49,207 nucleotides of DNA from Burkholderiaceae bacterium (GTDB lineage Bacteria > Patescibacteriota > Saccharimonadia > Saccharimonadales > AQU-01): assembly GCA_043788365.1 (NCBI GenBank), contig JAYVTZ010000002.1, positions 1 to 49,207 of the forward strand. Direction: 5' to 3'. Each line of letters starts with the position of its first letter. Positions within the stretch are counted from its first letter, which is position 1. This document shows positions 18,731 through 47,953 of this stretch, piece by piece. The position numbers and the translations under genes are program-made. Below the pieces are notes generated by a model. That model saw nothing but the letters and a program-made list of their open reading frames with translations, was not told the DNA's origin and did not search any database.

Positions 18731-18807
18731 GCCCCGGTAGCTCAGCGGATTAGAGCAATGGGCTTCTATCCCACAGGTCGGGGGTTCGATTCCCTCCCGG
18801 GGTACCA
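18731..18807 (+). tRNA. tRNA-Arg (anticodon TCT), CCA encoded
   Basis: Acceptor GCCCCGG/CCGGGGT, D arm GCTC..GAGC, anticodon loop CTTCTAT (one A-C mismatch at the top of the stem), T arm GGGGG-TTCGATT-CCCTC. Confidence 0.85.
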
Positions 18808-18988
18808 ATATGAAAACGCTCAGCTTCAGCTGGGCTTTTTATATTGGTCATCTCTGGGCGGGAGGGAATCGAACGGGAATGTCCTAGCGGACATTCCCCG
18901 CCCTTGGTCCGGCAACTAGTTGCCGGATGGCTATGGCCAGAAGTAATTTTCTTTTGGCCAGCTAGGTCGATTCCCTCCCGGGGTACCA
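18808..18988 (+). repeat. structured module U1 ending in an exact 22-nt copy of the tRNA-Arg(TCT) 3' end
   Basis: Terminator hairpin, GGTCATCTCTGGGCGGGAGGGAATCGAAC, then hairpins at 18875-18898, 18908-18927 and 18934-18960, then TCGATTCCCTCCCGGGGTACCA (18967-18988). Homologous to 20041-20216. Confidence 0.8.
18813..18841 (+). terminator. rho-independent terminator after tRNA-Arg(TCT)
   Basis: GCTCAGC-TTCA-GCTGGGC followed by TTTTT. The outer stem extends to pair ACCAATATGAAAA (including the tRNA CCA end) with TTTTTATATTGGT. Confidence 0.65.
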
Positions 18989-19223
18989 AATTAAAAGACT
19001 CGCCGTAAGGTGGGTCTTTTGATTTGGTTACTTGAGTGTATTGATCCCCCGACCGCGACAGCTTGCTGGCGCAAGGTCGGGAGTTCGCTATTCAGTCTAA
19101 TGCCCGAGATTTATCTCGGCGCATAGATTGAATATACCCTAGTATTCCCTCCCGTCAGGCGATGACCATGCCCAAAAGTAATTTTCTTCTGGCCAGCCAG
19201 GTCGATTCCCGCTTGGTGTTCCA
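18989..19223 (+). repeat. module U3: second terminator hairpin, pseudo tRNA-Arg 3' half with an insertion in the T-loop, and a diverged tRNA 3'-end copy
   Basis: AAAAGACTCGCC-GTAA-GGTGGGTCTTTT hairpin. AAGGTCGGGAGTTCG (19073-19087) and ATTCCCTCCCG (19144-19154) are separated by a 56-nt palindromic insert. A TAATTTT-loop hairpin (19170-19194) is followed by GGTCGATTCCCGCTTGGTGTTCCA (19200-19223). Confidence 0.7.
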
Positions 19224-19310
19224 ATTCAACACATCAGATTGTTCTAGTTCGAGCATTTCAAGCTTTTGACTACTTGTATCTGTTATTTAGTTCGAATCTT
19301 AATTGCTCCG

Positions 19311-19325: not shown

Positions 19326-20018
19326 ATGCGAAAACAAAAGCAAATTTGGCTTTCAGAACATACCAATCAGACGACCTTACCAACGATGGCAAATGTAGAG
19401 CCCGCTAGTGGGGTAGTGTTATTCACAGATTGGCTAAACGATAACGGGATTAATTTTGTGGGCAACGCTGTAGATATTGGCTCTGGTAAAGGTCGTAATA
19501 GCGTCCATCTGGCTAAGCTTGGTTACGAAGTGTGGGGTTTGGAATATATAGAGCTAGCAGTTGATTCAGCGAAACAGTTAGCAGACAAAAATGATGTTGG
19601 TAGCAAAGTTCACTTTGAAATTTGTGAAGTTGATTCTGGCTGGAAAATTGAAAATAATTTCTTCGACATCGCTATAGATTCGTTCTCCAGTATCGATATC
19701 GAAACAAAAGAAGGTCGTGAAAAATGTAGAGACGAGATGTACCGTACGCTCAAATCCGGTGGATATGCACTCGTAACTGTCTGCTCATCGGATGATGAGT
19801 GGGAAAAGGAACTCATTTCAAAACATCCAGGTCCAGAGCCTAATAGTACGATTTGGCCACAGAATGGTAAGTTTCAAAAAGACTACGACGAATTAGAACT
19901 TAGAGAATTTTATAAAAAGTTCGAAGCTGTTGATTTAAAGAAAATTAGCAAACCAGCCTTCAAGTTAGAACGCGAAGGTACGGCTACCAACTTGTGGCTT
20001 GTGCTACGCAAAAAATAG
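19326..20018 (+). CDS. class I SAM-dependent methyltransferase
   Basis: Motif I VDIGSGKGRNSVHLA, an acidic residue at the end of beta-2 (GLE), and the post-I/II pattern typical of small-molecule methyltransferases (TehB/UbiE-like). Confidence 0.75.
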   Translation: MRKQKQIWLSEHTNQTTLPTMANVEPASGVVLFTDWLNDNGINFVGNAVDIGSGKGRNSVHLAKLGYEVWGLEYIELAVDSAKQLADKNDVGSKVHFEICEVDSGWKIENNFFDIAIDSFSSIDIETKEGREKCRDEMYRTLKSGGYALVTVCSSDDEWEKELISKHPGPEPNSTIWPQNGKFQKDYDELELREFYKKFEAVDLKKISKPAFKLEREGTATNLWLVLRKK

Positions 20019-20040
20019 TTCTAACCTCTGCAAGAATACT

Positions 20041-20216
20041 GTACCAATATGAAAACTCTCAGCTTTAGCTGGGCTTTTTATATTGGTCATCTCTTGGCGG
20101 GAGGGAATCGAACGGGAATGCATCAGCATGCATTCCCCGCCCTTGGCTTTTCAGCTGTGCCGAAAAGTTGTCATGGACGAATATAATTTTTATTCGTTCG
20201 ACAAGGTCGATTCCCT
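20041..20216 (+). repeat. structured module U2 (paralog of U1), starting with GTACCA and ending with a truncated tRNA-Arg T-arm copy
   Basis: The first ~80 nt are nearly identical to 18802-18881 (3 differences seen). The hairpins at 20114-20137, 20147-20167 and 20175-20199 have different sequences but the same positions. Ends with GGTCGATTCCCT (20205-20216). Confidence 0.8.
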
Positions 20217-20271: not shown

Positions 20272-20300
20272 TTGTTAAACTGCCCGTTTTAAGTTATAAT
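20272..20300 (+). promoter_or_regulatory. sigma70 promoter for the tRNA-His cassette
   Basis: TTGTTA (20272-20277), a 17-nt spacer, then TATAAT (20295-20300). Confidence 0.6.
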
Positions 20301-20447
20301 CACCCCTGTTCTTATTGTCTATTGTCTTATCCGAAATCACGAGAGGATTCGTGATTTCGAGAGGAGGAAGCTTTGTGGGGTTACTAATTTTGCGGAGCAA
20401 ATTTATTTTGTCGGCGAAATAGTAACTGCACAATTACATTCCGACGA
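20301..20447 (+). promoter_or_regulatory. conserved structured 5' leader of tRNA-His
   Basis: Hairpin GAAATCACG-AGAGGATT-CGTGATTTC (20333-20358), GAGAGGAGGAAGCTTTGT, the long-range stem GTTACTA/TAGTAAC, and the 17-mer ACAATTACATTCCGACG (20430-20446). Homologous to 28581-28778. Confidence 0.7.
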
Positions 20448-20525
20448 GGCGAGCTTAGCTCAGTTGGTTAGAGCGCCGGGTTGTGGTTCCGGAGGTCGTG
20501 GGTTCAATTCCCATAGTTCGCCCCA
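20448..20525 (+). tRNA. tRNA-His (anticodon GTG) with encoded G-1 and CCA
   Basis: G-1 then acceptor GCGAGCT/AGTTCGC, discriminator C, anticodon stem CCGGG/TCCGG with loop TTGTGGT, T arm GTGGG-TTCAATT-CCCAT. Confidence 0.9.
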
Positions 20526-20528
20526 TAT

Positions 20529-20555
20529 TAAAAAGTCTCACACAGTGAGGCTTTT
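20529..20555 (+). terminator. rho-independent terminator after tRNA-His
   Basis: AAAAAGTCTCAC-ACA-GTGAGGCTTTTT. The outer stem pairs GCCCCATATT (the tRNA 3' end) with AATATGGGC. Confidence 0.65.
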
Positions 20556-20705
20556 TAATATGGGCAAGCTCGTGGCATGGACTTCCACGACACGAGAGCT
20601 TTAGCTCACGTTAGTCGTGGCAATCAATAATTAGTCTTAGCCCCATAGCTCCAACGGAGCGGGCGGCTGGATTAATTTCACGCCGGTATTCCATAGTTCG
20701 CCCCA
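20556..20705 (+). other. tRNA-His trailer module ending in a duplicated tRNA-His 3' end
   Basis: Structured stretch, conserved AGCGGGCGGCTGGATTAAT (20658-20676), then ATTCCATAGTTCGCCCCA (20688-20705), compared with the tRNA's ATTCCCATAGTTCGCCCCA. Confidence 0.7.
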
Positions 20706-28551: not shown

Positions 28552-28580
28552 TATACAACAGAGGTATAAGTTGCTATAAT
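28552..28580 (+). promoter_or_regulatory. sigma70 promoter for the tRNA-Pro cassette
   Basis: TATAAT (28575-28580) with a weak -35 TATACA 17 nt upstream. The sequence downstream of the -10 aligns with the tRNA-His cassette (CCCTGTTC...). Confidence 0.5.
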
Positions 28581-28778
28581 AGCCCTGTTCAAATATCTTT
28601 TGTCCTATCCAATTTTGCGAGAGGATTCGCAAAATCATCAGGAAAAAGCTTTCTTGTTTTTCCGAAATTGAGAGAGGATTCTCAATTTCGAGAGGAGGAA
28701 TCTTTGTATGGTTTATAGTATTGTTGGTCAAACTTGTTTTGCCAACAATACAGAAACCATACAATTACATTCCGACGC
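28581..28778 (+). promoter_or_regulatory. conserved structured 5' leader of tRNA-Pro (two hairpin modules)
   Basis: Hairpins ATTTTGCG-AGAGGATT-CGCAAAAT (28612-28635) and GAAATTGAG-AGAGGATT-CTCAATTTC (28664-28689). GAGAGGAGGAATCTTTGT. Nested perfect stems at 28706-28714/28754-28762 and 28718-28727/28742-28751. The 17-mer ACAATTACATTCCGACG (28761-28777). Confidence 0.7.
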
Positions 28779-28854
28779 CGGGGTGTGGCGCAGTTGGTAG
28801 CGCGCGCGGTTTGGGACCGCGAGGTCGAAGGTTCGAGCCCTTTCACCCCGACCA
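28779..28854 (+). tRNA. tRNA-Pro (anticodon TGG), CCA encoded
   Basis: Acceptor CGGGGTG/CACCCCG, D arm GCGC..GCGC, anticodon stem CGCGG/CCGCG with loop TTTGGGA, T arm GAAGG-TTCGAGC-CCTTT. Confidence 0.9.
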
Positions 28855-28862
28855 TATAAAAA

Positions 28863-28885
28863 GGCCCACGAAAGTGGGCTTTTTT
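28863..28885 (+). terminator. rho-independent terminator after tRNA-Pro
   Basis: GCCCAC-GAAA-GTGGGC followed by TTTTTT. The extended stem pairs CCGACCATATAAAAAG (the tRNA 3' end) with TTTTTTATATGGTCGG. Confidence 0.65.
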
Positions 28886-29025
28886 ATATGGTCGGTGACG
28901 AGCTCCTACTTTCGACCCAAGATTTTTTGCCCTGCAAAAAAGACGGAAGGTCGAAGGTTCGGTCATCAGTCACAGGCCCCAGCGTAGCGGGCGCCTGGAT
29001 TGATGTGCGCATGCCCTTTCTCCCC
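28886..29025 (+). other. tRNA-Pro trailer module: pseudo tRNA-Pro 3' half split in the T-loop
   Basis: AGGTCGAAGGTTCG (28948-28961, identical to 28822-28835), a 51-nt insert containing AGCGGGCGCCTGGATTGAT (28986-29004), then GCCCTTTCTCCCC (29013-29025), compared with the tRNA's GCCCTTTCACCCC. Confidence 0.7.
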
Positions 29026-47332: not shown

Positions 47333-47953
47333 TCAGTTGCCAAATTTTTCGACGTAAGCCTCGTGGGCTTTAATGATAATCTGTGACGTTACATTTGGGT
47401 TAGGAATTGTCGTAAAATCGGGTGACGGTTTTTCGCCAGCAGTCTCGACTTCAAGATTACCGTAATGAAAAATTCTTGGCAAAATTCCCTTCTGAATAAC
47501 AGTCACATCTTCAACATTACCGATACCTAATTGACGAACTTGGCGATTAAAGATGCTCTTGTAGACAACTTCAGCCATCTTATCACTAGTCACGAATATG
47601 GTACTGCTCTTATAGATGAATGCTGATAAGGCCGTAGCTGCGAATACTAATCCTCCAGCGATTAAGCCTATAAAAAGAATCATAGCGTTGAATGAATCAC
47701 TACTATTGATGCCCAACGTGTGGGCTAAAGAGGTACTGGTAAGGAGAAAGGCTGCAAGTAACACAGCACCAGTTATGAAGCCGCCCGTCAGCCAAATAAA
47801 CACCAGCCCGATTGGGTGCTTATGGACTTCAGCGAGCACCGTCTCATCATCGTCAAACTCAACATACTTAAATAATCTTTGACCGAGTGGTGTCAGCTGG
47901 TCACACGCCTCTTTACGATGAGGCGACATTTCGGAATTTTCTTCGTTGCTCAT
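47333..47953 (-). CDS. membrane protein with a bacterial PH (YdbS/YdbT-like) domain
   Basis: Two adjacent TM helices followed by a roughly 80-aa beta-rich domain. The HKHPIGLV start matches the bPH_2 pattern. Confidence 0.5.
   Translation of the reverse strand: MSNEENSEMSPHRKEACDQLTPLGQRLFKYVEFDDDETVLAEVHKHPIGLVFIWLTGGFITGAVLLAAFLLTSTSLAHTLGINSSDSFNAMILFIGLIAGGLVFAATALSAFIYKSSTIFVTSDKMAEVVYKSIFNRQVRQLGIGNVEDVTVIQKGILPRIFHYGNLEVETAGEKPSPDFTTIPNPNVTSQIIIKAHEAYVEKFGN

Follow-up and report, generated by a model that had tools for sequence, protein, structure and literature searches.

Two of the five transfer RNA (tRNA) genes in the stretch of DNA analysed here, 49,207 nucleotides of contig JAYVTZ010000002.1 (hereafter the window), are preceded by long structured leaders. 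We conclude with high confidence that these leaders belong to a lineage-restricted family of modular structured RNA elements that occupies the leaders of tRNA and transfer-messenger RNA (tmRNA) genes in Saccharibacteria. The two genes encode tRNA-His and tRNA-Pro, and a first-pass annotation of the sequence had proposed that their leaders share hairpins with a common 8-nt loop, a motif resembling a Shine-Dalgarno (SD) sequence and a 17-mer at the RNase P site. Bacterial tRNA leaders are normally short and unconserved. In the window they measure, from promoter-like sites onwards, ~140 nt (His) and ~190 nt (Pro), and both are predicted to fold into much more stable structures than shuffled sequences (z-scores of -4.6 and -7.8, respectively). 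The other three window tRNA genes (Arg-TCG and a Gly-TCC/Arg-TCT pair), which like the first two were located with ARAGORN and Rfam, have leaders of ~5–15 nt in which the motif is absent. The window is assigned to Saccharibacteria by its serine hydroxymethyltransferase, whose nearest named relatives are so labelled and are 87–91% identical.

The element is assembled from units that read, 5' to 3', P1, J and P2. P1 is a 10-bp stem, beginning with a C-G pair, under the loop AGAGGAUU. J repeats the AGAGGA of the loop immediately 3' of P1, which sets the two hexamers exactly 18 nt apart. A GGAA/UUCC pairing closes P2, which takes the form of a mini-P2, GGAAGCUUUUCC, in internal units and of a long irregular hairpin in the last unit. 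GACGA comes after this last unit, 1–4 nt ahead of the mature 5' end. In the window these parts, all on the + strand, are as follows.

20332..20359, +: P1 of the His leader, a 10-bp stem CGAAATCACG/CGTGATTTCG with the 8-nt loop AGAGGATT at 20342-20349; 70.9 bits with the covariance model

20360..20365, +: J of the His leader, the second AGAGGA, between P1 and P2; with the flanking G and GG it reads GAGAGGAGG

20366..20442, +: P2/P3 of the His leader, a long irregular hairpin with a GGAA (20366-20369)/TTCC (20439-20442) closure and the conserved apical CAAA-UUUAU-UUUG

20443..20447, +: GACGA tail of the His leader, at positions -6 to -2 relative to tRNA-His +1

20449-20525, +: tRNA-His (GTG), with an encoded G-1 at 20448 and an encoded CCA (ARAGORN, Rfam and the sequence itself)

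28612-28635, +: P1 of Pro unit 1, with the loop AGAGGATT; the unit (28612..28663) scores 54.4 bits

within 28612..28663, +: the degenerate linker of Pro unit 1, CATCAGGAAAAAGC

28641-28647 / 28657-28663, +: mini-P2 of Pro unit 1, in which GGAAAAA pairs with TTTTTCC

28663-28690, +: P1 of Pro unit 2, a stem CGAAATTGAG/CTCAATTTCG with the loop AGAGGATT; 68.6 bits

28691-28696, +: J of Pro unit 2, AGAGGA

28697..28773, +: P2/P3 of the Pro leader, a long hairpin with a GGAA (28697-28700)/TTCC (28770-28773) closure

28774..28778, +: GACGC tail of the Pro leader, abutting tRNA-Pro +1

28779-28854, +: tRNA-Pro (TGG), with an encoded CCA (ARAGORN, Rfam)

The three hairpins of the first-pass annotation are thus present, at 20332-20359, 28612-28635 and 28663-28690. 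All the stem bases it had reported are paired, but its stems were drawn too short in two cases, as P1 of the His leader and of the second Pro unit is longer by one C-G pair and reaches 10 bp. The SD-like motif that it had placed after the His and second Pro hairpins is found at both, as GAGAGGAGGAAKCTTTGT at 20359-20376 and 28690-28707 (two matches vs 0.11 expected by chance), and the linker of the first Pro unit is degenerate, as it had stated. In single-sequence folds the P1 loop is unpaired and the linker largely so. The 17-mer, ACAATTACATTCCGACG, occurs at 20430-20446 and 28761-28777 (0.18 matches expected) and does end 1 nt short of G-1 of tRNA-His (20448) and of +1 of tRNA-Pro (28779). 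Its standing as a conserved box of its own, however, has to be revised: it is identical inside this genome, but across genomes only its last 9–10 nt, (A)UUCC-GACG, are conserved, and most of it is the 3' strand of the long covarying hairpin plus the GACGA tail. The comparison with other genomes further refines the initial picture in that the element is built of modules, which also form tandem arrays.

To delimit the family, an exact-pattern scan with a 21-base pattern was run on 185,579 species-representative genomes, where it returned eight loci, and a second scan was run on metagenome contigs. The pattern fixed the loop and the linker only and left the stems free, so the pairing of P1 is not an artefact of ascertainment. 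An exact pattern of this length under-samples divergent members and overstates the invariance of the motifs; moreover, fragments of each genome were covered, taxon labels are those of the depositors and covariance-model E-values are rough. Loci in Sutterella and Lachnospiraceae and two metagenome loci were set aside as chance matches, lying in coding-like DNA with no hairpin. The true matches come from assemblies of Saccharibacteria, from one that is labelled Paceibacterota and from metagenome contigs of like kind that bear no label, and every one of them is a leader of the same type directly 5' of a tRNA or, in the comparison locus L013, of tmRNA. In total, the module was found in at least 14 Saccharibacteria-type genomes other than that of the window, before at least ten tRNA species and tmRNA, which bears out the earlier view of a conserved and structured leader. 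The genes downstream are those for tRNA-His, Gln(CTG), Arg(TCT), Arg(CCT), Asp, Lys, Ile and Pro, elongator and initiator tRNA-Met, intron-bearing tRNAs and tmRNA. In L015 the module is placed between tRNA-Ala and tRNA-Ile, and at L013:1772-2331 (minus strand) a two-unit leader abuts the 5' end of the tmRNA gene (ssrA).

A covariance model of the unit was then run on ~346 kb, made up of the window (filters off), 17 motif-derived loci and 11 loci reached through proteins. All gene-strand hits with E < 1e-4 lie in the 5' leaders of tRNA or tmRNA genes, and in the window the units score 54–71 bits on the tRNA strand vs 7–12 bits on the opposite strand. The 16S leader of a module-carrying genome contains no copy of the module, and a scan of viral contigs for phage copies gave only three chance hits, all in coding DNA. 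The number of tandem units per leader ranges from one to five or more: the His leader has a single unit; the Pro leader, in which the first unit is degenerate, L008 and L013 have two each; and L011 and L020, both of which lie on one contig together with L017, have at least four to five. The units are near-identical inside a genome, and their number and order differ between loci of one contig. Presence of the module is independent of tRNA identity. The tRNA-His gene has it in the window and L006 and lacks it in L004 and L041; the tRNA-Pro gene has it in the window and lacks it in L006 and L041. In tRNA genes without the module TATAAT followed by CCCCTGTTC adjoins the tRNA directly (e.g., L004 Gly and L008 Thr).

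GACG stands before the gene in 16 of 18 modules, at a spacing of 1–4 nt from the mature end. GACGA is also found at -5 to -1 of short-leader tRNAs without the module, namely L008 Arg-CCT (L008:1060-1086) and L029 Ser (L029:10380-10404). It therefore probably reflects a preferred RNase P leader or transcription-start context of the lineage, and at tRNA-His we presume the tail to be RNase P leader context. The RNase P protein of Bacillus favours an A at -4.

The covariation claimed for the stems is borne out by the enlarged set of sequences. Over 23 distinct units, P1 is 98.3% paired and nine of its ten pairs have changed on both sides; none of 500 shuffles reached the observed values, and sliding the partner strand lowered the pairing to 54% or less. 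The long hairpin was folded with RNAalifold from eight terminal modules belonging to the window's subtype; of the 42 pairs predicted, 28 have compensatory changes, and the apex, CAAA-YUURU-UUUG, is conserved. In the GGAA/UUCC closure 71 of 72 cells are paired, and GGAU/AUCC and GAUG/CAUC occur as compensatory variants. When 19 terminal modules were folded independently, the full architecture was recovered in 18, the exception being L016, for which the closure, GGAA/UUAC, is not predicted. G-U pairs are present in both P1 and the long hairpin, which together with the strand-biased model score points to RNA rather than double-stranded DNA as the conserved entity. The first-pass annotation had named two findings that would speak against a dedicated element, a recent segmental duplication confined to the two window loci and a match to a known Rfam family or repeat. 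Neither was obtained: the module and its covariation extend far beyond these loci, which excludes a simple segmental duplication, and the leader matches no Rfam family. In searches with Rfam only tRNA was found, both at gathering thresholds and at E-values up to 10; the sole match within the Csr clan, to rsmX (E=6.8), is on the opposite strand and lies in a terminator.

The purine motifs are complementary to the 3' end of 16S rRNA, which in the module-carrying genome L015 is GGAUUACCUCCUUUCUA. GAGAGGAGG pairs with the tail CCUCCUUUC over 9 bp with one G-U pair, and when all 12-mers on both strands of the 49-kb window were ranked by pairing with the L015 tail, the two linker sites GAGAGGAGG came out on top at -15.9 kcal/mol, the next best being -12.9. 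In the window's open reading frames (ORFs) an SD-like 4-mer is found in eight of 44, vs a background of 3.8%, and a TANNNT (-10) box lies 5–12 nt before the start codon in 18 of 44, vs a background of 16%; both counts are rough, with ORF starts assigned mechanically. They suggest that leaderless mRNAs may be frequent in this genome. Examples of leaderless-looking starts are those at 47953, 30275, 12041, 18505 and 19326. The 16S tail of a relative retains CCUCCUUUCU although the window ORFs are SD-poor. The SD-like motif of the leader is not followed by a conserved start codon or ORF in the sequences compared: the relatives have no start at that spacing, and some have a stop.

What the module does is less clear than what it is. 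The reading we favour, which we hold tentatively and on sequence grounds, is that the leader, once cut off by RNase P, is a stable, multivalent RNA that mimics SD sequences and titrates free 30S subunits or a GGA-binding protein. Its starting point would be the promoter of the tRNA gene itself, with a G+C-rich discriminator:

20272..20300, +: promoter of tRNA-His, with a -35 box TTGTTA, a 17-nt spacer and a -10 box TATAAT; the promoter-like site ends at 20300

20301-20311, +: G+C-rich CACCCCTGTTC after the -10 box of tRNA-His, common to tRNA promoters without a long leader

28552..28580, +: promoter of tRNA-Pro, with a TG-extended -10 box TATAAT, followed by AGCCCTGTTC; the promoter-like site ends at 28580

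Transcription from these sites would include the leader, and the RNase P cut at the tRNA 5' end would free it as a separate small RNA with its 3' end 5 nt past the long hairpin. Stability is to be expected, as hairpins lie close to both ends of the leader. The freed RNA would present its exposed purine motifs as a multivalent SD mimic and titrate the factor that reads them, the first choice being the CCUCCUUUC tail of 16S rRNA on free 30S subunits, and the output of such a decoy would track the activity of the tRNA promoter and the copy number of the units. The patchy presence, variable copy number and near-identity of the units fit a dosage-type function in trans better than a tRNA-specific function in cis.

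Several observations weigh against this release model. The GG of GGAGG is inside P2 and the first G of the site inside P1, so that only ~6 nt are freely exposed, and in some folds the pyrimidine-rich 5' flank base-pairs with part of the linker. Nor does complementarity to the 16S tail account for the invariant UU of the loop. The pair of identical motifs 18 nt apart would suit a dimeric protein at least as well as a 30S subunit. The invariance of loop and linker stems partly from ascertainment by the exact 21-base pattern. Finally, a different long leader without an SD-like motif, termed type B, is found at the orthologous His and Pro genes of syntenic relatives; the purine motifs thus cannot be the sole reason for the long leaders.

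The type B leaders came to light through relatives that are syntenic with the window, found via its P-type ATPase (69–73% identity).

L037:1500-1688 and L037:12560-12751: type B leaders of the orthologous tRNA-His and tRNA-Pro(TGG)

L040:12700-12895: type B leader of tRNA-Pro(TGG)

They have a three-hairpin layout, with AAGAGCAG and GGCACGACGAGAA (also given as AAGAGCAGYYCGA and GGCACGACGAGAARCC) as conserved strings, and searches of Rfam gave no hit for them. One of their strings, CAUCAGGAAGAGC, is similar to the degenerate linker of Pro unit 1 in the window. In L041 the orthologous His and Pro genes have short leaders. The occurrence of type B at orthologous genes indicates that long structured leaders on these tRNAs are a feature of the lineage, with interchangeable content, and fits the idea that tRNA leaders serve as small-RNA expression sites in these bacteria.

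The same arrangement of sites could be read by a protein. An RNA sponge of the CsrB/RsmZ type, in which each unit offers two GGA sites to a dimeric protein (CsrA or another reader of GGA or purines), tandem arrays sequester many dimers and RNase P sets the 3' end, is possible, although we consider it unlikely. It would account for a GGA in a hairpin loop and another in a linker at a fixed 18-nt spacing, for the tandem units and for the whole invariant loop, including its UU. A CsrA dimer can span two GGA sites, best when these are ~18 nt apart. Furthermore, csrA transcripts have been reported among those of highly expressed genes in ultra-small groundwater prokaryotes (PMC9938205). However, neither a CsrA nor an Hfq gene was detected by tblastn in the window or L001-L022, which are small pieces of each genome, and the Csr/Rsm models of Rfam were not matched. 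The motif is GAGGA rather than the usual A(N)GGA or CAGGA(U/A/C)G, and an SD-poor genome would hold few classical CsrA targets. An RRM gene lies beside the array in L020, but arrays are not consistently accompanied by it, and the motif is missing from its 5' untranslated region (UTR).

This RRM protein was rejected as a partner of the leader: its gene stands beside the array in one genome and close strains and not in the other genomes, and AGAGGA is absent from its 5' UTR. The protein itself (100 aa; L020:8588-8890, and ~9800-10310 in L023, L027 and L029) is 80–100% identical across many Saccharibacteria, and its gene has a conserved 5' UTR of ~150–180 nt with a boxA-like GCGUUUAACAA.

Somewhat less probable again is a role in cis, as part of the precursor tRNA. 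A bound 30S subunit or protein would then shield the precursor from 5'-end-dependent decay, in the manner of STAB-SD sequences, or gate RNase P, and the output of tRNA and tmRNA would hinge on the state of the bound factor. The strict position of the module immediately 5' of RNase P substrates, with the conserved GACGA 1–4 nt from the cleavage site, argues for such a role, as does an SD-like sequence without a start codon, the defining trait of STAB-SD. RNase Y is encoded in the window. In the candidate phyla radiation (CPR) the RNase P RNAs have diverged, and many of them have no CCA-binding motif (PMC8172020). The presence of a different long leader at the orthologous genes of relatives likewise suggests that the leader position itself matters. 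Yet many tRNAs of these genomes cope with leaders of 3–15 nt, tandem multiplication of the units brings no obvious benefit to a cis element, GACG stands at varying distances from the mature end, and the module is not tied to the identity of the tRNA.

A further alternative, which we regard as improbable, makes the attached leader a ribosome-sensing switch. A free 30S subunit would dock by its anti-SD tail on AGAGGA and thereby decide between maturation of the precursor by RNase P and its degradation. If this were so, the supply of tRNA and tmRNA would be balanced directly against the pool of idle ribosomes, giving a physical form to the old idea of 'ribosome feedback' in a minimal genome that initiates mostly without SD sequences.

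It is very improbable that the module is a functionless selfish or neutral repeat, i.e., a minisatellite-like hairpin unit spread by recombination between tRNA promoter regions. Its patchy distribution among orthologous tRNA genes would be expected of such a repeat, and so would near-identical units in a genome whose number and order vary between loci of one contig. Across genomes, however, the loop and linker motifs are invariant while the stems have been changed by compensatory substitutions, and the module keeps a strict orientation and an exclusive position. No target-site duplications or terminal repeats are visible around it in the window leaders and the loci compared. Very small genomes also tend to shed dead weight.

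A DNA operator for a dimeric transcription factor, or a leader-peptide attenuator that uses the SD-like motif, is largely refuted by covariation and by the missing start codons of the relatives: P1 does form an inverted repeat near the promoter, and in the window a GTG (His) or ATG (Pro) lies 7–9 nt 3' of the SD-like motif, but the stems covary instead of keeping a fixed sequence, their G-U pairs would be A-C mismatches on the other strand, the conserved loop is asymmetric, the relatives lack a start codon at that spacing and in part carry a stop, and the two window peptides are unrelated and contain no run of His or Pro. For the attenuator there is, in addition, no conserved start or frame, and no terminator stands between leader and tRNA.

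Other identities were considered and discarded. A T-box or other riboswitch leader gave no Rfam hit up to an E-value of 10, and the gene downstream is a tRNA, not an mRNA. TIGR arrays, the Tas-associated guide arrays, are defined by box C/D-like repeats and by units that each hold two spacers with no covariation between them (PMC12045711), whereas the leader has no C/D boxes and its two variable segments are perfectly self-complementary. The PyrR binding loop, the preQ1-I riboswitch and the sarcin-ricin loop, which we take to share a GAGAGG-type string with the leader, gave no Rfam hit, and the flanking bases required for their folds are not conserved. No specifier-like match of the P1 stem to the downstream anticodon is visible in the compared sequences, and inspection by eye found no consistent complementarity of loop or linker to the downstream tRNA, its trailer or the 17-mer. 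Full-text literature searches on the motif strings and on Saccharibacteria tRNA leaders, small RNAs, CsrA and Hfq found nothing relevant.

Among known systems, CsrB and RsmX/Y/Z come closest in design, with a variable number of hairpins, GGA purine motifs in loops and linkers, and a multivalent, dosage-like layout. The leader shares this layout: AGAGGA occurs twice in each unit, in the loop and again in the linker, and there are one to five or more units. It differs in not being free-standing with a terminator of its own: it always runs into a tRNA or tmRNA and ends at the RNase P site. It also departs from the consensus A(N)GGA / CAGGA(U/A/C)G, as it reads GAGAGGA with G rather than A at -2, except for the degenerate Pro unit 1, which reads AUCAGGAA. 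STAB-SD elements of the Bacillus thuringiensis cryIIIA type resemble the leader in having a strong SD-like sequence that is complementary to the 16S 3' end and is not used for initiation, and in the setting of Gram-positive-type RNA decay (RNase Y in the window). STAB-SD, however, consists of one site close to an mRNA 5' end, whereas the leader has two sites per unit, tandem units and covarying hairpins, and the genes that follow it are tRNAs or tmRNA, not mRNAs, with the tRNA cut off by RNase P.

Other precedents bear on the release of the leader. Like 3'ETS-leuZ, the leader lies in a spacer of what is probably a tRNA transcript (between promoter-like site and tRNA, or between Ala and Ile in L015), and on our proposal the two would also have in common that a spacer freed by tRNA processing acts as a sponge in trans. 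In contrast, 3'ETS-leuZ is a non-modular 3' trailer that is released by RNase E and sponges Hfq-dependent small RNAs, whereas the leader is 5', structured, repeated and conserved across many tRNA genes. In MALAT1/mascRNA, too, the 3' end of an upstream non-coding RNA is set by RNase P at the 5' side of a tRNA-like element, which is what we propose for the leader; that system is eukaryotic, its tRNA-like element is not a real tRNA, and there is no relation in sequence or structure. The nut-like boxB and boxA of rRNA operons offer a further parallel: there, too, the leader of a stable-RNA operon has a hairpin ahead of a conserved single-stranded box. The leader is unlike the boxA consensus, though, the module is absent from the 16S leader of a module-carrying genome, and tRNA units of ~80 nt need no processive antitermination.

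A lineage of episymbionts with reduced genomes thus devotes 120–400 nt per gene to a covarying modular leader ahead of many tRNAs and of tmRNA. The module would be a new class of structured RNA in Patescibacteria, a group in which, to our knowledge, almost no regulatory RNAs are known. If released as proposed, it would exemplify a bacterial RNase P that forms the 3' end of an upstream RNA, and if its purine motifs engage the 16S tail, this would be one use for a conserved anti-SD sequence in a largely leaderless genome. Genetic systems for Saccharibacteria exist.

The comparison loci yielded some additional observations. At L007:1979-2160 (+) there are two tandem ~75-nt units with the loop AGAGGAUU on G+C-rich 10-bp stems, CCCCACGAAG/CTTCGTGGGG and CCCCGCGGCA/TGCCGTGGGG, after which come a conserved tail of another kind and a terminator-like hairpin; the units are convergent with tRNA-Leu. 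The loop AGAGGAUU is thus present in at least one further RNA context. A shared insertion beginning ...GTGCCAGYGGCAC...GCAAGG interrupts the tRNAs after some leaders (L007:3955-4135; L008:4160-4370; L018, minus strand, from ~2070 to lower coordinates) and is probably a group I-type intron; such introns have been reported in CPR tRNAs (PMC8172020). At L003:674-777 (+) a SAM-I riboswitch lies back-to-back with a tRNA-Gln leader, which runs on the opposite strand.

Within the window, type IV pilus genes are encoded in addition to RNase Y, and extending the contig beyond the window added only ~5.8 kb with no tRNA. Both leader-bearing tRNA genes run into terminator-like hairpins.

20523..20566, +: terminator-like hairpin of tRNA-His, whose stem starts in the CCA end and reads CCATATTAAAAAG...CTTTTTAATATGG; the scan scored the - strand

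~28852-28895, +: terminator-like hairpin directly after tRNA-Pro

In these two hairpins, and in a third at 18803-18850, the stem starts from inside the encoded CCA (CCATAT...ATATGG). A- and T-tracts flank them on both sides, making bidirectional termination possible. Finally, a direct repeat of ~105 bp at 18808-18906 and 20040-20146 (also 18966-18990 and 19195-19225) brackets a 1.2-kb segment with a methyltransferase gene (19326-20018) and more tRNA 3'-end fragments. The repeat contains the ACCA end of tRNA-Arg, a terminator and a GGGCGGGAGGGAATCGAAC...CCCGCCC hairpin, which on the minus strand reads as a tRNA-like minihelix; the repeats look like scars of elements integrated at tRNA-Arg.

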